43,883 nucleotides of DNA from an uncultured Pseudomonadales bacterium. GTDB lineage: Bacteria > Patescibacteriota > Microgenomatia > UBA1400 > PJMF01. The position numbers were made by a program, and so were the translations under genes. Every line of letters begins with the position of its first letter. Position 1 is the first letter of the stretch. Shown piece by piece: positions 3,358 to 30,011 of this stretch. The notes under the pieces are model-generated. The model worked only from the letters and a program-made list of their open reading frames with translations. It did not search any database and had not been told where the DNA came from. The stretch is taken from positions 1-43,883 of the forward strand of contig CAYMVN010000001.1 in assembly GCA_964394125.1 (NCBI GenBank), written 5' to 3'.

Positions 3358-4470
3358 ATGAACACACCTGCCCGTGTATCAAGAATTATAGTTTCAAGTT
3401 TCGTTTTGGGGTCACTCCTCGTAACGCCATCTGCGTATGTTGCGCACGTTTTTGCTCAAGAGCAAACGGCTCAACCAATTCTGACATCGGAGCCGTCCCC
3501 ACCAGTTCCAGTAGCTATTCAACCTCCTTCTGTTGCTGCACAGCAGAGCCTATCCCTCACCGCGACACCACTGCGCTATGGCGATGATGACACACTCGTA
3601 ATCAGCCCTGGTGAAAAAAAGCAGATCAAAGTTGAAGTCATTAACACCAGTGATGTTCCATTAACAGTCGTTAGTACTGCACGTGACTTTATCGTTGAAG
3701 ATGGTGAAACGCCAGTTCCTCTCGAGAGTGGTGTCGGTGACAACCGGTGGAGTCTTGCTTCGTGGCTCGTACTTACCCCCAATCAGCACACGCTACAGCC
3801 TAGACAAAAAGCAAGCATTACGGTTCTGATTGATGTACCAGCAGATGCGCTCCCAGGTGGACACTATGCAATGGTGAGTCATCAGCCATCGCTATCAAGT
3901 GCAAAAGGCACAGAGGGTAAAGCAGCCGGCATCAATCAACGAGTTGGAACGCTCCTGTATGTGCGCGTTGCCGGGCCAATAAATGAGTCAGCCAACATTC
4001 GCAACTTCACCATCCCTAAGTACAGTGAGTTCGGGCCAGTGCCCTACTCTTTTACCATTGATAACCTATCTGATATTCATATTCGGCCACAGATCGGTAT
4101 TTCTATAAAGAATCTGTTTGGGAAACAAGTTGCGCTTTTGCAACCAGAAGCAAAAAACATCTTTCCACTCAGCAACCGTTCTTATTCTGGAAAGTGGGAA
4201 CAGATCTGGGGATACGGCTACTACCATGCTGACTTAGTTGTTAGTTACGGCGCGCAAGGTGATGTCGTCATTGCAAAGACAGCATTCTGGTTAATTCCAA
4301 TTAAGCTAGTGCTCGCCCTCTTTATTATGTTGCTCACTGCTGTTGCGGCAGGTATCTCAATTCGCAGACACCTCAAGCACCGCAAACAAGATCAGAATGC
4401 TCGTATTGCAGAGTTAGAGGCTAAGCTGAATGAGGCTCAAGGCCAAGATCTCAAGCAATATGAGGAGTAA
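3358..4470 (+). CDS. Membrane-anchored cell-surface protein, DUF916/DUF3324-like (CscA-type), with a charged cytoplasmic tail
   Basis: A 370-aa ORF with AAGGA 6 nt upstream of the ATG and a signal peptide. It has the pattern L.I.PGE...I.V.V.N.S....V, then DVPADALPGGHYAMV, a second beta domain, a TM helix (LVLALFIMLLTAVAAGISI), and an RRHLKHRKQ plus coiled-coil-like tail. It is a paralogue of 746..1720. Confidence 0.7.
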   Translation: MNTPARVSRIIVSSFVLGSLLVTPSAYVAHVFAQEQTAQPILTSEPSPPVPVAIQPPSVAAQQSLSLTATPLRYGDDDTLVISPGEKKQIKVEVINTSDVPLTVVSTARDFIVEDGETPVPLESGVGDNRWSLASWLVLTPNQHTLQPRQKASITVLIDVPADALPGGHYAMVSHQPSLSSAKGTEGKAAGINQRVGTLLYVRVAGPINESANIRNFTIPKYSEFGPVPYSFTIDNLSDIHIRPQIGISIKNLFGKQVALLQPEAKNIFPLSNRSYSGKWEQIWGYGYYHADLVVSYGAQGDVVIAKTAFWLIPIKLVLALFIMLLTAVAAGISIRRHLKHRKQDQNARIAELEAKLNEAQGQDLKQYEE

Positions 4471-6383
4471 TGAAACGCTTTGCACTCTACTTACTTGGCT
4501 GTTTAGTGGTACTCGCAGCACACCTTCCTGGGTTCATTATTCGAGCTGAAGATACTGGTATCTTACCTGGTGAAACCTATACTCAGCCAAAAACAAGAAC
4601 CACACAGGTAACAGCGGGTGTTCATGATAATGAGCCGCCCAGCACGCCGCTACTCATTGCTCCGGCTGATACTGCTATTCTTGCTACGAATACACCGACT
4701 TTTGTCTGGCAAGCTGCGACTGACAATATTGCGCTCAGTCACTATAGCCTCGTTCTCGATGGCACAGTGCTGTACTCGAGTATCCCACTCTCAGATACAA
4801 CAAATAGCCAGTTTACCCTCACCTACTCGAGCACAACGCATGAGTATAGCCTTGTTCCAAAAGAGGCACTTACTGAAGGTGAACACTCGTGGAGTATTAT
4901 CGCCTTCGATGTCTACGATAACCAGACAAGCTCTGTAACCTGGAAGTTTACTGTTGATACAGTTGCTCCCGTCTTTACCATTTCCACCGTCGATACACTC
5001 AAGGTCACTATCACAACGCAAGATCTCAGCACCATTCCTGAGACAGCACTGGCAGTCACCGTTGCGCAGCCGCTACTTTCAGGAACTGGAGAAGCTGGCA
5101 GCACAGTTCACCTCACGGTGCGCACGGCAAATGCTCCCGACCAAGTTTTTACCTTCACAATTGCTGCGAATGGGACTTGGGAACAAAAAATTGATACAAT
5201 TCCTAGAGATCAATTGATTCATCTTGATTTTATTATTACAGATAGCGCTGGAAACATCAGTGCGCTCGAAGATGTCCCGCTTATCCTCAAGAGTGTACAA
5301 ATTGTTATTCCGCTGCCTCCAGAGATACCGATACTTCCTCCAGAAGTAAGCATCCCGGTTATTAGTGCAGTAGAAATTAAAGAGAAGATCGTCTCAAGCA
5401 GCATTCTCTATGCGCCGCCAACTATTCAACAACTGGCCACCACCATTGGTCTAGTGCGCACTATCCCAGGCACACAAAAAATTGACTGGACGTTCCTCGC
5501 CTATATGAGCCTATGTACCCTTGGGCTCCACCTGGTGCTCAAGGTGTGTATCCTGATGCCACGATATACAGAGCTTGGCTGGTTTGGATTTTTGGATATC
5601 CTCAGGGTACTAGGTCTAGCCTGGGATGCACGACCACAAGGTATCGTTATCGACTCAAAAACACAGGGAGCAGTGCCCTTCTGCAAAATTAGTATCTCAG
5701 GGCAGCAAAAAAATAAAACACCACTGCACAAAAGCATCGTTACAAATAAACAAGGAGTCTTCTTTAAGACAGAGCTCCCTGAGGGAGAGTATGTCTATAC
5801 GGTTGTCGAAGAAGGCTTCGTCTTCCCCACTCTAACGCAACACCCACTCCACCTTGACTCAAACCAGTACTACCAAGGCAGCACCTGTACCGTGAGCGAT
5901 GATGCGCGACTCCCCGGGATAACTATTCCTGTTGATTCTTCTAGCAAGCCACGCACACCTTCACTTGCTCGGCGGATTCTGCAGAAACCGCTCCTGAACA
6001 CATCAGGAGTGGCTGTGAACTTACTTCTTGTGCTTGTAGCACCCTCACTGCTGAACGCTGCGGCTCTGAGCTTCTACTGTCTGCTCTACCTCACTGTGCT
6101 CGCACGGAGCCGGAAAAAGAAGAAACAGTACACCTTCAGTGATACACACATGTTACAGAAAGAGAACTCGGTAGTGTACCTGTACTCCCCTCAGAAAGAG
6201 CTCCTCGCTGTGCAGCAGACTTCAAAAGATGGCAGCTGTTTCTTTGAGCGACACGACACCTACACCATTGAGTACGTGGACACCACACACACCCTGCAAG
6301 AAGACCAAAGCGTAACGACAACAAGTAGTGAAGCTGAAGTGCTCCGCACCGAGCCTGCTCCCCACACCGTGAACTTCGCCTAG
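4470..6383 (+). CDS. Polytopic surface protein with N-terminal Ig-like domains and a carboxypeptidase-regulatory-like beta-sandwich
   Basis: The start overlaps the upstream stop (TAATG), suggesting translational coupling. It has a signal peptide (LLGCLVVLAAHLPGFIIRA). Ig-like repeats follow (EPPSTPLLIAPADTAILATNTPTFVWQAATDN..YSLVLDG; LSGTGEAGSTVHLTV). After two or three hydrophobic helices comes GIVIDSKTQGAVPFCKISISG...TNKQGVFFKTELPEGEYVYTV, a CarboxypepD_reg-type pattern, then further TM helices near the C-terminus. Confidence 0.6.
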   Translation: MKRFALYLLGCLVVLAAHLPGFIIRAEDTGILPGETYTQPKTRTTQVTAGVHDNEPPSTPLLIAPADTAILATNTPTFVWQAATDNIALSHYSLVLDGTVLYSSIPLSDTTNSQFTLTYSSTTHEYSLVPKEALTEGEHSWSIIAFDVYDNQTSSVTWKFTVDTVAPVFTISTVDTLKVTITTQDLSTIPETALAVTVAQPLLSGTGEAGSTVHLTVRTANAPDQVFTFTIAANGTWEQKIDTIPRDQLIHLDFIITDSAGNISALEDVPLILKSVQIVIPLPPEIPILPPEVSIPVISAVEIKEKIVSSSILYAPPTIQQLATTIGLVRTIPGTQKIDWTFLAYMSLCTLGLHLVLKVCILMPRYTELGWFGFLDILRVLGLAWDARPQGIVIDSKTQGAVPFCKISISGQQKNKTPLHKSIVTNKQGVFFKTELPEGEYVYTVVEEGFVFPTLTQHPLHLDSNQYYQGSTCTVSDDARLPGITIPVDSSSKPRTPSLARRILQKPLLNTSGVAVNLLLVLVAPSLLNAAALSFYCLLYLTVLARSRKKKKQYTFSDTHMLQKENSVVYLYSPQKELLAVQQTSKDGSCFFERHDTYTIEYVDTTHTLQEDQSVTTTSSEAEVLRTEPAPHTVNFA

Positions 6384-26582: not shown

Positions 26583-27308
26583 TTAATCAATCAGCCGCGC
26601 GTAGCGGAAGTATCGTATTGGCGAGTTTAAGTACTTGCAGGTGTACAAGATGAGGTTTGCCGAGTAGTCAGTAATTTGACTCCCCTCGTCTTCTGCATAG
26701 ATTTCATATGTGTACTTTTTTTGTTCGTAGATAATCTCGATGGTATCTCCCGGGTGCGTTTCAGTGAGCGAGTAAAAAGAGTTCCGCTTACCAAAGTCTG
26801 TTTTCCACCACCACTTCCACCCATAGCGATGCGCAGCAATAATGGTTGGTTGTGTTGTATCTCCTGGCCGTCCAAAGTCTGGTACCATCCACGCGCCTTG
26901 TTCAAGCGCTTCATCTGAATTGGTAAGCGCTTGGGCCTGAGTATCCACACCGATAAGGGGAATACGAATTCTTGTTTCTATTGGCAGTGAACGGTCTTGC
27001 ACTCTGACTGGTGCAGGAACTGGTGTTGCGCTTGGGGCAGGTTCAGCAGCAACACTTTCTGGAGCAAGCGCAAAAACCTCGTCTTGTTGCGTATCTGTTG
27101 TTAACCGTGACCAAACTTCTGGAATAACAATACTGCCAATAATAAGTACTGTCGCAACAATGATACTAATGAGCAAAAATTGAGCACAGAGTCGGAGAAC
27201 CCGTGTGAGTGAGTACTTGGAACGTCTTTTTGCACCAACAAGCCGCTTACGAACAAGAGGAAAGTGCGTCTGCAGCAGTGTTCCCTGTGTTTCTAGAGTC
27301 AAGGTCAT
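26583..27308 (-). CDS. Sortase family transpeptidase
   Basis: It has a TM anchor (FLLISIIVATVLIIGSIVI), a catalytic His context (TIIAAHRYG), a Cys context (LILYTCKY, of the TLxTC type), and a downstream Arg (RYFRYARL). The ORF is open to 27347, but the ATG at 27308 (MTLTLETQG) sits 7 nt downstream of an extended -10 box. The upstream 13 codons are AT-rich promoter sequence. Confidence 0.8.
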   Translation of the reverse strand: MTLTLETQGTLLQTHFPLVRKRLVGAKRRSKYSLTRVLRLCAQFLLISIIVATVLIIGSIVIPEVWSRLTTDTQQDEVFALAPESVAAEPAPSATPVPAPVRVQDRSLPIETRIRIPLIGVDTQAQALTNSDEALEQGAWMVPDFGRPGDTTQPTIIAAHRYGWKWWWKTDFGKRNSFYSLTETHPGDTIEIIYEQKKYTYEIYAEDEGSQITDYSANLILYTCKYLNSPIRYFRYARLID

Positions 27309-27315
27309 GTTCTGT

Positions 27316-27344
27316 ATTATATCAATATGTATCAAAATATACAA
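27316..27344 (-). promoter_or_regulatory. Promoter of the sortase-rho operon (TTGTAT-17-TGaTATAAT); predicts a leaderless mRNA
   Basis: The minus-strand reading is TTGTAT(27344..27339)-17 nt-TATAAT(27321..27316), with TG at the extended -10 position. It is followed by ACAGAAC (7 nt) and then ATG at 27308. No SD is possible. Confidence 0.45.
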
Positions 27345-27391
27345 CAATATAGGATACTATTAAGAATGTGTGCAGAAAAAAATAAAAAGAA

Positions 27392-27454
27392 TAAAAAAAA
27401 GCGTTGTGTGGAAGCTCGGCTGCCTGCCCAACTGCCGAACCTCCACACAACGCT
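27392..27454 (-). terminator. Strong Rho-independent terminator on the minus strand, with no annotated gene upstream of it
   Basis: A 13-bp perfect stem pairs AGCGTTGTGTGGA (27400..27412) with TCCACACAACGCT (27442..27454). An inner 5-bp helix pairs TCGGC with GCCGA. On the minus strand the stem is followed by U8, then AUUCUUUUUAUUUUUUU. Confidence 0.6.
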
Positions 27455-27493
27455 CTGAACCACTTATATATAGAGATAGTGAGAAAGATTTCG

Positions 27494-27522
27494 TTTACAA
27501 ATCACTCCACTCACTCTATAGT
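27494..27522 (+). promoter_or_regulatory. Orphan sigma70-type promoter (TTTACA-17-TATAGT)
   Basis: TTTACA at 27494..27499, an exact 17-nt spacer, and TATAGT at 27517..27522. The predicted TSS is ~27529. Confidence 0.45.
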
Positions 27523-27528
27523 AGACCT

Positions 27529-27620
27529 ACTTACACTTCTCCATACCTAAAAAGATGGAGATATTCAGAAAAAAGGCATTGTTATACGTGGTCTGTCCAG
27601 CGATAATGATGCTTTTTTTT
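27529..27620 (+). ncRNA. Candidate ~90-nt small RNA, or the 5' part of a small toxin-like mRNA
   Basis: It is bounded by the promoter at 27494..27522 and the terminator at 27576..27620. It contains a 5' hairpin TCTCCAT/ATGGAGA (27538..27561), an A-rich linker and a terminator hairpin. No known RNA family was recognised. Confidence 0.3.
27575..27620 (+). terminator. Rho-independent terminator on the plus strand; weaker on the minus strand
   Basis: GCATTGTTAT (27576..27585) pairs with ATAATGATGC (27603..27612) through 8 Watson-Crick and 2 G-U pairs. Inner CG/CG and TGG/CCA pairs extend the helix, and T8 follows (27613..27620). On the minus strand the two G-U pairs become C-A mismatches and are followed by only T6. 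Confidence 0.5.
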
Positions 27621-27678
27621 GTCTCTCCAGCTCTTCTTAAGATTTTCGTGTTTTCAGTTCCACTTTGCTGTATACATT

Positions 27679-27707
27679 AGTATAGCGTTTCGGGTTCCTA
27701 TCGTCAA
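27679..27707 (-). promoter_or_regulatory. Orphan sigma70-type promoter on the minus strand (TTGACG-17-TATACT)
   Basis: The minus-strand reading is TTGACG(27707..27702)ataggaacccgaaacgcTATACT(27684..27679). The predicted TSS is ~27672. The transcript would be antisense to the plus-strand unit and would end at the 27392..27454 terminator. Confidence 0.45.
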
Positions 27708-27844
27708 CCTATAAGAATATAGGTACCCTCTTTTACATATCTCATAATTTTAATTATGTATTATTTATTGACTGATATGAAAAACATATTAACACAATAA
27801 CTACGACTGTTGATAAAGAGTTAAATATTTTACCTACAAAAAAA

Positions 27845-27853
27845 TGCTATACT
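27845..27853 (+). promoter_or_regulatory. Extended -10 element TGcTATACT, 7 nt upstream of the ATG at 27861; predicts a leaderless mRNA
   Basis: TGCTATACT, then ACGAACT (7 nt), then ATG. There is no SD. The geometry matches the sortase promoter. Confidence 0.4.
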
Positions 27854-27860
27854 ACGAACT

Positions 27861-30011
27861 ATGCAAGATCGCCATGTTGCTTTTGAGCTTAAAGTCTCCA
27901 AGACGAACACCTACACATCAGAATCCATCGTTCCATTCTTGTCTACTCTCCCCGAGTTGCACAACTACTGGTGGGATCATCTGTTACAACGCTTCGAGCA
28001 CTTGAGTCTGGAAATTCACGTTAAAGATCAACGTGTCTCGTTTGTTTTGTTCTGCCCTGAGCGCACTGCCGACTACACTATTAGTATCCTCACCGCTGCT
28101 TACCCTGATGTACTGGTAGTTCCCCTCACCGACGACCCCTTGTTTACCATCAGTGAAGAAACCAAGCGCGAGTACTCGGTTGGAACAGTCCGACTCTCCA
28201 ATGGCTCTGACTTGCCTCTCAAGACATTCCGCGAGTTCTCACAGAGTGACTCACTGATGCCCCTCTTAGCAACACTTTCGCAGTTGAAGCAGAAAGACCA
28301 TGCGGTTATTCAGTACGTTATTAGCAAAGAAACGGGACTCTTCTCTGCACCTTCTTTGAGTACCACCCCGCATCCGCAACAAGCACTCATCGATCAAAAA
28401 AAGAATCAACAATCCTGTTTGGTATCGATTCGGCTTTTAGTTGGTTCCGCAACAAAACACAGAAGCACTCACCTACTTGAAACGCTCGCTCAAACATTTC
28501 AAGCCATCACTAAAAGTGAGAGTAACTCGCTAGTACTGCACAAGGCATACCTGCTTCCAGAGCAACTGAAACACCGAATTATTGAGCGGTCGTTTGGCTA
28601 CTTTGATGCACACGTTTTTTCTGTAGATGAGCTGGCGACACTCTTCCATCTGCCAACACCCGTTATCGCCAGCATTCCGAACATTGTTTGGGGTCGTAAG
28701 CTCCTTGGTGAACCACCAGAGAACCTACCGATCATCACTCCCGATATGCCTGCAGAGGAGAAAAAGGAAATTAACGCATTTGCACGAACAACCTTCAAAA
28801 ATAGCCCAACTGTATACGGGATTCACCGGTTAGATAGACGCAGACACATGTACGTGATTGGAAAAACGGGTACCGGTAAGTCGACACTACTCGCAAACAT
28901 GGCAATTAGTGATTTGAAGAATAATGAGGGTATGTGCGTCATCGACCCCCACGGCGATTTAGTAGAGACGCTCCTCAACTACATTCCTTCGCATCGCATT
29001 AACGATGTTATCTACTTCGACCCCAGTGATCCTGAGAAAACTGTTCAGATTAACTTGTTTGAAGGTACGAACATTGTGCACCGTGAGCTTATCGCTTCTG
29101 GTATTGTGTCTGTTTTTAAGAAGCTCTACGCCTACTCTTGGGGGCCACGACTTGAGTATATTTTGCGCAATGCGCTGCTCACCTTACTAAAAAGTGAGAC
29201 CGCTCGACTTTCAGATATTATCGAGATGCTCACGAATAAGTCATTCCGCCAGAAGTTAGTTGCGCAGCTTGATGATGATATTCTCAAAAACTTCTGGGAG
29301 CTTGAGTTCGACACCATGCAAGATAAACTCCGTACTGAAGCCATAGCGCCAATTCTTAATAAAGTTGGTCAATTTGTGTCTTCTCCCCTGGTTCGTGACG
29401 TAGTGAACTCGCGCTACAGCTCTTTTAGCATTGAGGAAGCTATGGACACAGGGAAAATTATCCTTGTTAATTTATCACAAGGAAAATTAGGCGAAGATAA
29501 CGCGACACTTCTCGGGGCAATGCTCATTACTAAGATTCAACTTGCAGCGATGGCGCGGGTGCATATTTTAGAAGAAGATCGCAAGGACTTTTACTTGTAC
29601 GTCGATGAGTTCCAGAACTTTGCGACTGAGTCATTTAGTAAGATTCTCTCTGAAGCAAGAAAGTACCGCCTCGACCTTATCCTTGCGAATCAGTACATGG
29701 GGCAGATACCAGAAGACGTGCAGAAAGCCATCTTTGGAAACTGTGGTAGTATCATGAGTTTTGTAACCGGTTCTGAAGATGCCGGTGTTTTGGCTCGTGA
29801 GTTTAACAACCGGTACACCGCTGACGAGCTTGTTTCTTTAGGGAAGCACCAGATCATCAATAAGATAACTATTAACAATATGATCTCTGAGCCATTCCCT
29901 GCTGAGACACTGCCGCTCGCAAAAAGTAACAACAAAAATAAAGATAAAGTTATTAAAGTGAGCCGTGAACGCTATGCTGCAAATAAAAAACCGGCACTAA
30001 ATAAGACTTAG
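27861..30011 (+). CDS. Type IV secretion coupling-protein-like (TraD/VirD4/TraG family) P-loop ATPase with a novel ~330-aa N-terminal domain and no TM anchor
   Basis: Walker A context is YVIGKTGTGKSTLLANMAISDL..GMCVIDPHGDL and Walker B is FYLYVDEFQNF. The TraG/TraD C-terminal pattern reads LSEARKYRLDLILANQYMGQIPEDVQKAIFGNCGSIMSF. I could not see any hydrophobic helix or known domain in the N-terminal third. Confidence 0.7.
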   Translation: MQDRHVAFELKVSKTNTYTSESIVPFLSTLPELHNYWWDHLLQRFEHLSLEIHVKDQRVSFVLFCPERTADYTISILTAAYPDVLVVPLTDDPLFTISEETKREYSVGTVRLSNGSDLPLKTFREFSQSDSLMPLLATLSQLKQKDHAVIQYVISKETGLFSAPSLSTTPHPQQALIDQKKNQQSCLVSIRLLVGSATKHRSTHLLETLAQTFQAITKSESNSLVLHKAYLLPEQLKHRIIERSFGYFDAHVFSVDELATLFHLPTPVIASIPNIVWGRKLLGEPPENLPIITPDMPAEEKKEINAFARTTFKNSPTVYGIHRLDRRRHMYVIGKTGTGKSTLLANMAISDLKNNEGMCVIDPHGDLVETLLNYIPSHRINDVIYFDPSDPEKTVQINLFEGTNIVHRELIASGIVSVFKKLYAYSWGPRLEYILRNALLTLLKSETARLSDIIEMLTNKSFRQKLVAQLDDDILKNFWELEFDTMQDKLRTEAIAPILNKVGQFVSSPLVRDVVNSRYSSFSIEEAMDTGKIILVNLSQGKLGEDNATLLGAMLITKIQLAAMARVHILEEDRKDFYLYVDEFQNFATESFSKILSEARKYRLDLILANQYMGQIPEDVQKAIFGNCGSIMSFVTGSEDAGVLAREFNNRYTADELVSLGKHQIINKITINNMISEPFPAETLPLAKSNNKNKDKVIKVSRERYAANKKPALNKT

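Follow-up and report, generated by a model that had tools for sequence, protein, structure and literature searches.

Kissing-loop antisense control RNAs include CopA/CopT (R1), RNA I/RNA II (ColE1) and Sok/hok. In the par locus (Fst, RNA I–RNA II) of the Enterococcus plasmid pAD1, two facing promoters share a two-way intrinsic terminator, the loops can make the first contact, and extra complementarity lies outside the terminator. CPR/Patescibacteria are mostly uncultured and have tiny genomes; to our knowledge, almost nothing is known on RNA-based regulation in this group, and we know of no RNA chaperone or RNA target in these organisms. In the 43,883-nt stretch of DNA analyzed here (the window), a gene-less spacer (27348–27860) carries elements on both strands, spanning 27393–27723, that resemble par and related type I loci in their facing promoters, shared two-way terminator and predicted complementarity outside it. 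The locus differs from par in that it has no conserved toxin open reading frame (ORF), is chromosomal and syntenic rather than patchy or plasmid-borne, and includes a third hairpin (block 1). As in CopA/CopT, RNA I/RNA II and Sok/hok, it is predicted to form stable hairpins with loops complementary between the opposite-strand RNAs of one locus, but no replicon or toxin target is evident here, and the predicted loop site lies outside the overlap and contains G·U pairs. The predicted plus-strand small RNA (sRNA) has the anatomy of orphan intergenic sRNA genes (a sigma-70 promoter and a Rho-independent terminator, the terminator stem being best conserved), but differs from them in its class-wide single-copy conservation and in a dedicated, equally conserved antisense promoter. 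Literature searches returned no description of this RNA locus. We hypothesize, at a probability of roughly 0.6, that it is a non-coding RNA locus, conserved as a single copy in one class of Patescibacteria only, and that it encodes a plus sRNA and an opposing antisense RNA but no protein or toxin.

The sequence-only reading had listed five transcription signals in the spacer; all five were recovered at the coordinates given below, and all five were also kept in relatives. Within the single sequence, the number of promoters was unremarkable (7 vs 2.8 ± 1.8 in shuffles), and a simple terminator scan listed neither of the two main hairpins (blocks 1 and 2); folding was far better than that of shuffles on both strands (z = −7.5, minus; z = −4.3, plus). 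The claim that the signals are not random was upheld because they are conserved across loci: the same order and orientation were found in 57 distinct loci of other genomes. These 57 homologous units were collected by scanning species genomes for the block 2 pattern and the block 1 core word, so that the apparent conservation of both cores is inflated. Both blocks, with 83–95% identity and at fixed spacing, were present in 24 of the 41 genomes of the order.

The plus promoter, P(+), reads TTTACA-17-TATAGT (27494–27522; 10 of 12 matches), with AAGAT at 27485–27489, the −35 box TTTACA at 27494–27499, the −10 box TATAGT at 27517–27522 and a predicted start at ~27529. The −35 box together with a TAnnnT −10 box at a distance of 16–18 nt was present in 52/57 loci, and AGAT preceded the promoter in 41/57; no second instance of AAGAT..TTTACA with a downstream −10 box occurred in the 1.08-Mb genome. 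The predicted plus sRNA (~93 nt; 27529–27620, plus strand) would consist of a small 5′ hairpin, an A-tract and the block 2 terminator. Its 5′ hairpin, TCTCCAT/ATGGAGA (27538–27544 and 27555–27561), has a different sequence in each lineage, but its position and structure are retained; the 5′ parts of the plus sRNAs gave a mean z of −2.8 against shuffles, with 47/56 below −1.5. Comparison among loci thus shows a near-consensus promoter, a 5′ hairpin kept in structure and a block 2 kept in sequence, which together define the putative ~93-nt plus sRNA.

Block 2 is the terminator hairpin of this sRNA (27576–27612, plus strand; bulged A27586 and G27600; apex UCUGU at 27592–27596), and is followed by U8 at 27613–27620. 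In the window, a G+C-containing hairpin followed by a U-tract, as expected of an intrinsic terminator, was found for block 2 on the plus strand and for block 1, likewise with U8, on the minus strand. In the alignment of block 2, 98.2% was paired, three pairs change on both sides (U-A to C-G) and 10 pairs are invariant. Mismatches in the plus-strand RNA were G·U in 63 cases and A·C in five, and the mean folding energy was −14.8 kcal/mol on the plus strand vs −9.6 on the minus strand, the plus strand being the better one in 42/42 loci. The apex varies from 5 to ~40 nt in length among homologues with the stem retained. Block 2 is built for the plus strand. On its 5′ side lies a conserved A-tract (27569–27574; columns 4–8 of alignment A2 are at least 90% A), which reads as a U-tract on the minus strand, so that block 2 looks like a two-way terminator; the 9-nt tail averaged 5.8 U when read on the minus strand and 6.7 U when read on the plus strand.

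The second hairpin, block 1 (27400–27454, minus strand), has 23 pairs plus an inner helix and is followed by a U-tract at 27393–27399, which makes eight U with 27400 (27393–27400). Its apical loop, UUGGGCAGG, is the complement of plus-strand CCTGCCCAA (27423–27431), and the loop columns are invariant. In the block 1 alignment, 94.2% of cells were paired and 19 of the 22 pairs change on both sides, a result reached by 0 of 500 shuffles. The mismatch bias is that of a minus-strand RNA (164 G·U vs 28 A·C), and the mean folding energy was −35.0 kcal/mol on the minus strand vs −23.5 on the plus strand (minus better in 53/53 loci). A tail with at least five T in 10 nt followed block 1 in 34/53 homologous loci, and about a third had no U-tract. 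Block 1 lies just beyond P(+), and the promoters of the minus-strand genes that follow (sortase or rho) are directly downstream of it. Comparison shows it as a long hairpin that is built for the minus strand and has an invariant loop.

On the far side of block 2 lies a convergent minus promoter, P(−), which comparison shows to be as conserved as P(+). This candidate promoter reads TTGACG-17-TATACT (27707–27679, minus strand; 10 of 12 matches), with the −10 box TATACT at 27684–27679, the −35 box TTGACG at 27707–27702, an upstream TATAGG at 27713–27708 and a predicted start at ~27672. The TATAGG belongs to a palindrome, CCTATA-AGAA-TATAGG (27708–27723), and the whole element covers 27679–27723. 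The arrangement TATAGG-TTGACN-17-TATACT was found in 46/54 loci, 45 of them with TATAGG, vs 1/54 and 0/54, respectively, on the opposite strand of the same DNA. The distance from P(−) to block 2 was 10–198 nt among loci.

P(−) would give rise to an antisense RNA with two possible ends. It may stop at the reversed block 2 (a weaker hairpin with U6), yielding a predicted product of ~108 nt (27672–27565), or continue through the plus sRNA gene and P(+) to block 1; the resulting minus transcript of ~280 nt (27393–27672), predicted from P(−) and the hairpins, would be antisense to both. Because the two transcripts overlap, the plus and minus RNAs would oppose each other, presumably by forming a duplex and by convergent transcription, each across the promoter or terminator of the other. 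The conservation of both promoters and both hairpins across the class, with the strand-specific G·U pairing of each hairpin, supports the proposal that a minus transcript, started by a promoter on the far side and ended by the strong left hairpin, covers a short plus RNA that has a promoter and terminator of its own; the extension of this proposal to a type I toxin–antitoxin pair is not supported.

A covariance model of block 2 (R2) gave one match per genome in 108 of the 151 sampled genomes of the class, and none in ~143 genomes sampled from other classes of the phylum. The class in question is of the Microgenomates/Pacebacteria/Woesebacteria type within the CPR/Patescibacteria; nearly all of it has the locus, which is syntenic and present as one chromosomal copy. 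In 15/20 distant loci, the block 1 model (R1) matched next to R2 but on the other strand. Local searches recovered both models, as diverged copies, in three of five genomes that a filtered search had scored negative.

No known RNA family accounts for the locus, as the sequence-only reading had proposed to check. Rfam 15 gave no match at the gathering score in the window and chance-level matches only, at E up to 10, in 27250–27950; among 20 distant homologous loci, nothing was found at E ≤ 0.01. The locus is like the housekeeping RNAs in its single copy, strong promoter and lineage-wide conservation, but differs from them in matching no Rfam model. A divergent SRP (4.5S) RNA was attractive at first, since no SRP RNA (RF00169, RF01854) is detectable in the genome or in 41 relatives. 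It was rejected because the SRP proteins Ffh and FtsY are absent and such an RNA would have no partner; in this genome neither an Ffh M domain nor an SRP GTPase was found, and the GKTT...DTAGR signature was absent in six frames. Loss of SRP has already been reported for Parcubacteria (PMC4508563). 6S RNA was likewise rejected: RF00013 had no match in the genome, and the plus RNA, at ~93 nt with two separate hairpins, contrasts with the ~180-nt rod with a central bubble of 6S RNA. The tmRNA (missed by ARAGORN) and the RNase P RNA of this genome are both on other contigs.

Block 1 is oriented towards rho, and in the window, as in many loci, rho or sortase–rho comes next on the minus strand. The spacer could hence be read as a long structured leader of a (sortase–)rho operon, with P(−) as its distal promoter, the reversed block 2 and block 1 as attenuators in tandem, and the plus sRNA as an antisense regulator that acts in cis on read-through into rho; such a leader could form part of Rho autoregulation. 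Across the class, rho usually lies 0.4–11 kb downstream in the same orientation, and read-through is plausible in the roughly one third of loci where block 1 has no U-tract behind it. Like the rho leaders of E. coli and B. subtilis, the locus would place a structured, terminator-containing RNA upstream of rho on the rho strand. However, the known attenuators of those leaders are Rho-dependent and not intrinsic hairpins with conserved loops, and here the interval from block 1 to the start codons of sortase or rho contains sigma-70-like promoters that belong to these genes, often of the extended −10 type. The adjacency is also inconstant: the first downstream gene varies, and in some genomes (G038, G147, G155 and G066) rho is 16–26 kb away or on the other side. 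Moreover, block 2 is optimized for the plus strand and not for the rho strand, and block 1 of the window, which has 23 pairs and U8 and is preceded by no conserved alternative fold, resembles a constitutive stop. Co-occurrence is uninformative, because rho is present in 131/151 genomes of the class, including families that were scored negative for the module. We consider a rho leader improbable and regard the locus, given the promoters of sortase and rho right after block 1, as a unit independent of these genes.

The two-way appearance of block 2, between its A-tract and its U-tract, also allows three separate small RNAs. The P(−) RNA and the plus sRNA would then run towards each other into block 2 and share no other stretch, and block 1 would be a short hairpin RNA in its own right, transcribed from a mid-region promoter. 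The distance from P(−) to block 2 is only 10–13 nt in several lineages; the product of P(−) there could be a ~60-nt hairpin RNA, and block 1 would then need another promoter. Some loci offer one, in which a good −10 box (TAAAAT, TATAAT or CATAAT) and a TTGTAA box overlapping the −35 of P(+) are 17 nt apart. We tried such a divergent minus promoter, sharing the −35 region of P(+), as a candidate and rejected it: it is only weakly enriched (16/57 loci vs ~7 expected) and is absent from the window. In addition, block 2 is weaker on the minus strand by ~5 kcal/mol in all 42 loci, which favors some read-through. Three independent RNAs are in our judgment an unlikely arrangement, and the overlapping plus and minus RNAs remain the preferred reading.

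It is very doubtful that the conserved sequences act as DNA, that is, that two CTGYCC-containing inverted repeats and a CTATAG palindrome are protein-binding or cruciform sites that control the neighboring promoters without any functional RNA. Both CTGYCC cores have the same orientation on one DNA strand, block 1 is at a fairly fixed distance upstream of P(+), and the CCTATA/TATAGG palindrome abuts the −35 box of P(−), all as such sites might be arranged. However, the bias of G·U over A·C mismatches (a G·U on one strand being an A·C on the other) is strong and opposite in blocks 1 and 2, and strand-specific mismatches of this kind are expected of RNA folding and not of binding sites in duplex DNA. 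A 5′ hairpin whose structure is kept with unrelated sequence, and a block 2 apex of 5 to ~40 nt on a retained stem, are also at odds with DNA sites.

The 41-aa ORF on which the toxin proposal was based (27555–27680) is present as quoted. The only ORF of at least 60 aa (27370–27606; 78 aa) is open in just 9/57 homologous loci, so that the earlier statement that the spacer has no credible coding sequence holds. As had been cautioned, the 41-aa ORF has no Shine–Dalgarno (SD) sequence and the terminator lies within it. Its stop falls past the U-tract in nearly all loci. Among the loci, the frame over block 2 varies in start codon and C-terminus and in length from 6 to 77 aa (outliers of 95–297 aa aside), loop indels shift it, and it is open only because the hairpin nucleotides are conserved. 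When conservation of the ORF was compared with that of the RNA structure, the ORF was unconserved, while the hairpins were kept with a substitution pattern that follows RNA pairing. No SD-preceded small ORF was common to the minus strands; the ones present in 12/57 loci show no relationship to each other, and their products are not hydrophobic. The 41-aa, 78-aa and minus-strand small ORFs were all rejected as genes, none being conserved. A type I pair, with the 41-aa peptide or another small ORF as a toxin checked by the antisense RNA, is accordingly hardly credible: the sense/antisense layout with a shared terminator does resemble par (Fst) and similar loci, the conserved convergent promoters do predict overlapping RNAs, and the peptide is hydrophobic with a basic N-terminus, but this hydrophobicity is explained by the U-rich hairpin and terminator, neither strand offers a conserved toxin ORF and hence a toxin mRNA for pairing, and a single-copy, syntenic, class-wide locus is unlike typical type I loci, which are mobile and patchy. 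The alternative that the plus transcript is a non-coding sRNA, held in reserve by the sequence-only reading, was judged better than a toxin mRNA. The spacer probably carries two overlapping non-coding RNA genes, present as one copy and not described before, and the 41-codon "toxin" frame is an artefact of the conserved terminator hairpin.

How the two RNAs might touch is suggested by the motif CUGUCC at the block 2 apex (27593–27598, plus strand), which is complementary to the block 1 loop; the predicted duplex of GUUGGGCAGGC with GGUCUGUCCAGC has 11 pairs (−19.4 kcal/mol; z = −6.3). CUG[UC]CC occurred in 51 of 76 plus sRNAs, vs 1.5 in shuffles, and was absent from the other 25; among the 57 units it was found in 42 plus sRNAs, once as the reverse complement and in no mid region. 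In distant families, CUGYCC is in the loop of the 5′ hairpin and not at the block 2 apex. For a putative kissing-loop antisense pair, the promoters and strand-specific hairpins are conserved and the predicted loop complementarity is far above that of shuffles; the block 1 loop is nearly invariant, and true loop-to-loop covariation is therefore thin. With its loop UUGGGCAGG, block 1 would give the loop-exposed CUGYCC of the plus sRNA a second place to pair beyond the overlap, and the contact might serve as a kissing interaction, a decoy or an anchoring site. We tentatively raise the possibility, which we do not favor, of a near-universal, class-specific RNA switch in three parts, namely the plus sRNA, an antisense RNA from TATAGG-TTGAC...GTTATACT, and a decoy or anchor hairpin that kisses CUGYCC, acting as a lineage-specific housekeeping regulator. 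On contig C43, another sRNA with CUGCCC follows a promoter of like type, but it is unconserved even within the genus and was for that reason not used as support. Exact and short-BLAST searches of the genome for trans targets, meaning sites that could pair with the block 1 loop or with the plus sRNA, gave chance-level matches only; one match of 12 nt, in a tgt-like gene, reads in the sense of the block 1 loop and not in that of its complement. If true, the three-part switch might gate transcription into the downstream sortase/rho region.

These results remove a false toxin–antitoxin lead and provide two covariance models, R1 and R2, that would be usable as a marker of the class. The locus is a well-delimited target for metatranscriptome mining, in vitro transcription, RNA–RNA binding tests and RNA family databases. 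It is one of the few non-coding elements conserved class-wide in sequence, structure and promoter architecture.

The spacer (27348–27860) lies between a minus-strand sortase gene (Pfam Sortase match; start likely the ATG at 27308) and, as its right border, a plus-strand TraD/VirD4-like ATPase gene (27861–30011); rho follows the sortase gene and radA the ATPase gene, both on the minus strand. The sortase promoter (27309–27375, minus strand) is common to several genera as ATCCTATAAT-ATTGAY-N17-TGATATAAT, and since this ATG and the −10 box are 7 nt apart, the sortase mRNA probably has no leader; the ORF finder listed the TTG at 27347, which is unlikely to be the true start. When the spacer was searched for known housekeeping RNAs, a check proposed in the sequence-only reading, Rfam models detected no family even at permissive thresholds, and the whole window contained no tRNA, tmRNA or Rfam family. 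The five transcription signals of that reading were found where it had placed them and were conserved in homologous loci. Its weaker hairpin plus TCTTTT (27692–27735) is also present, but corresponds to the palindrome CCTATA-AGAA-TATAGG, an upstream element of the minus-strand promoter. Folding energies were −104.7 kcal/mol (z = −7.5) for the minus strand of 27380–27680 and −52.6 kcal/mol (z = −4.3) for the plus strand of 27525–27740.

The spacer occurs once in the 1.08-Mb genome. BLAST comparison with 40 relatives revealed two short blocks of 83–95% identity (block 1, 27392–27455; block 2, 27564–27620), in constant order and at near-constant spacing, in approximately 20 genera of the window's family and in two more families; the sequence between them was unalignable outside the genus. 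In a species-genome collection, a block 2 pattern matched 90 stretches, of which approximately 65 were real, showing the full GCATTG...ATGCTTTTT context, and approximately 25, in unrelated phyla, were attributable to chance (approximately 21 expected). The block 1 core CCTGCCCA was located 143–264 nt upstream on the same strand in 53 of the real matches. According to the names in the sequence records, the carriers are Patescibacteria (Pacebacteria, Woesebacteria and Microgenomates). Adding the loci of relatives to these matches gave 57 distinct units; since units were picked by the block 2 pattern and the block 1 core word, both cores will look conserved partly by construction, a selection effect from which stems, promoters, spacing and strand bias are free. 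Many contigs bearing the module, that is, the whole putative two-RNA locus, go under the record title "uncultured Pseudomonadales" or "Gammaproteobacteria" (binchicken, SRP co-assemblies; HK-STAS-PATE), and these titles are probably taxonomic mislabels of Patescibacteria-like contigs.

The plus-strand promoter P(+) (27494–27522) was found as AAGAT-N3-4-RTTTACA-17-TAnnnT in 52 of the 57 units, and AAGAT..TTTACA with a −10 box is unique to it in the genome. The minus-strand promoter P(−) (27707..27679), located 10 to 198 nt to the right of block 2, was found as TATAGG-TTGACN-N14-AGTTATACT in 46 of 54 loci, 45 of them with TATAGG, vs one promoter and no TATAGG on the opposite strand, which served as control. 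The promoter type with CTATAG(G) abutting the −35 box (ACTATAGG-TTGAC-N17-TATACT; 27708–27723 at P(−)) also occurs at three other sites in the genome, on contigs C43 (about 4330–4660, minus strand), C35 and C13. The C43 copy drives an orphan unit of ~125 nt that contains CUUCUGCCCUAA and has a clean terminator at its end; even among members of the genus, this unit is not conserved. The predicted product of P(+) is a plus sRNA of ~93 nt. P(−) would produce an antisense RNA that either ends at block 2 in reverse orientation, a hairpin about 5 kcal/mol less stable with U6 behind it, or runs on through the sRNA gene and P(+) as far as block 1. A variant of this nested pair, in which the locus specifies three separate sRNAs, is less likely.

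A leader or attenuator of the rho operon is likewise a less likely reading, weakened by promoters that sit between block 1 and the sortase and rho start codons and by the varying distance and orientation of the module relative to rho. The module is directly between radA and rho in several genomes. Ancestrally, the block 1 strand seems to have carried radA, the module, variable genes and then rho. In the window's family, the ATPase gene (27861–30011) and the sortase gene are insertions flanking the module in this older radA–module–rho neighbourhood (window and related loci L016, L022, L023, L133, L134 and L142).

Both hairpins are strand-specific. In a minus-strand alignment of 53 block 1 sequences (hairpin 27400–27454), 94.2% of cells were paired, vs 34–49% in slid controls, and both-sided changes occurred in 19 of 22 pairs; none of 500 shuffles reached the observed values. 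Non-Watson-Crick cells were G.U on the minus strand in 164 cases vs 28 A.C (G.U on the plus strand), and the minus RNA was the more stable in 53/53 loci (−35.0 vs −23.5 kcal/mol), while the loop UUGGGCAGG did not vary. Block 2 (terminator hairpin 27576–27612 plus U8) was mostly invariant in a plus-strand alignment of 42 sequences, three pairs going from U-A to C-G via U.G; mismatches on the plus strand were G.U in 63 cases vs A.C in 5, and the plus RNA was better in 42/42 loci (−14.8 vs −9.6 kcal/mol). The hairpin between P(+) and block 2 was always present, its sequence unrelated among lineages (mean z = −2.8; 47 of 56 below −1.5). A locus of DNA sites with no functional RNA is unlikely: opposite strand biases in neighbouring blocks are hard to square with DNA-binding sites, and would be the expected product of two RNAs transcribed from opposite strands.

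The type I toxin–antitoxin system suggested by the sequence-only reading was not borne out and is unlikely, as no conserved small ORF was found on either strand in the 57 loci. Its 41-codon toxin ORF varies in start, length and frame, and RNA structure is kept instead; the frame ...ALLxVVCPAxIMLF... is only what results when the conserved hairpin and U-tract are translated. It opens at an upstream ATG, GTG or TTG, or at a TTG inside block 2, spans 6 to 77 aa (outliers of 95–297 aa set aside), is switched to ...PSGNNAFF... by loop indels of one or two bases, and stops past the U-tract in almost every locus. A 78-aa plus-strand frame was open in 9/57 loci. Minus-strand ORFs of ≥20 aa preceded by an SD occurred in 12/57 loci and were mutually unrelated and not hydrophobic.

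A divergent SRP RNA was rejected as the identity of the spacer, since neither the genome nor the class and phylum samples contain Ffh or FtsY. Rfam models located tmRNA on contig C2 and RNase P RNA on C21, both away from the spacer, and found no SRP RNA (small or large) or 6S RNA in the genome. No Ffh M domain or SRP54-type GTPase (Ffh, FtsY) was detected there either, and a six-frame scan for GxxGxGKTT...DTAGR was empty. None of the samples from the order (0/41), the class (0/151) or the phylum (0/151) gave a real SRP-pathway match, while controls gave 14/14. The absence of SRP appears phylum-wide, in agreement with the report of Parcubacteria without SRP (Nelson and Stegen 2015, PMC4508563). 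The tmRNA gene (C2:32754–33166, minus strand) scored 94.9 bits with the Rfam model, but ARAGORN reported no tmRNA anywhere in the genome; the gene probably encodes a divergent tmRNA or one of unusual length (413 nt).

A covariance model of block 2 matched 108 of 151 sampled genomes of the class (Microgenomates-type Patescibacteria), once per genome, and none of ~143 genomes of the phylum's other classes at E ≤ 1e-4 (E-values of both models are rough owing to shortened calibration), and is therefore specific. The block 1 model matched 51/151 class genomes under strict whole-genome filters; with filters off, it adjoined the block 2 match on the opposite strand in 15 of 20 distant loci, and for three of five genomes with a negative score, local searches recovered both elements in the usual arrangement. 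Nearly all of the class therefore appears to carry the module.

Complementarity exists between the block 1 loop on the minus RNA (GUUGGGCAGGC) and the plus sRNA's block 2 apex (GGUCUGUCCAGC); the predicted duplex has 11 pairs, G.U among them, at −19.4 kcal/mol, and z is about −5 in most loci of the family. Distant families have a different apex and carry CCUGUCC, CUGCC or CUGCUC in the 5′ hairpin loop instead. CUG[UC]CC was present in 51 of all 76 plus sRNAs (1.5 in shuffles; missing from 25) and in 42 of those of the 57 units, vs one of the reverse complements and none of the mid regions; these counts include related, non-independent sequences, and the block 1 loop hardly varies. Such complementarity suggests loop–loop contact between block 1 and the plus sRNA. 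Genome-wide searches for complementary targets returned chance-level matches only. Sequence comparison establishes the retention of promoters and strand-specific hairpins, a single copy per genome and presence across the class. In the nested pair, the two units may antagonise each other through duplex formation and convergent transcription, and the block 1 loop may offer the plus sRNA one more place to pair.
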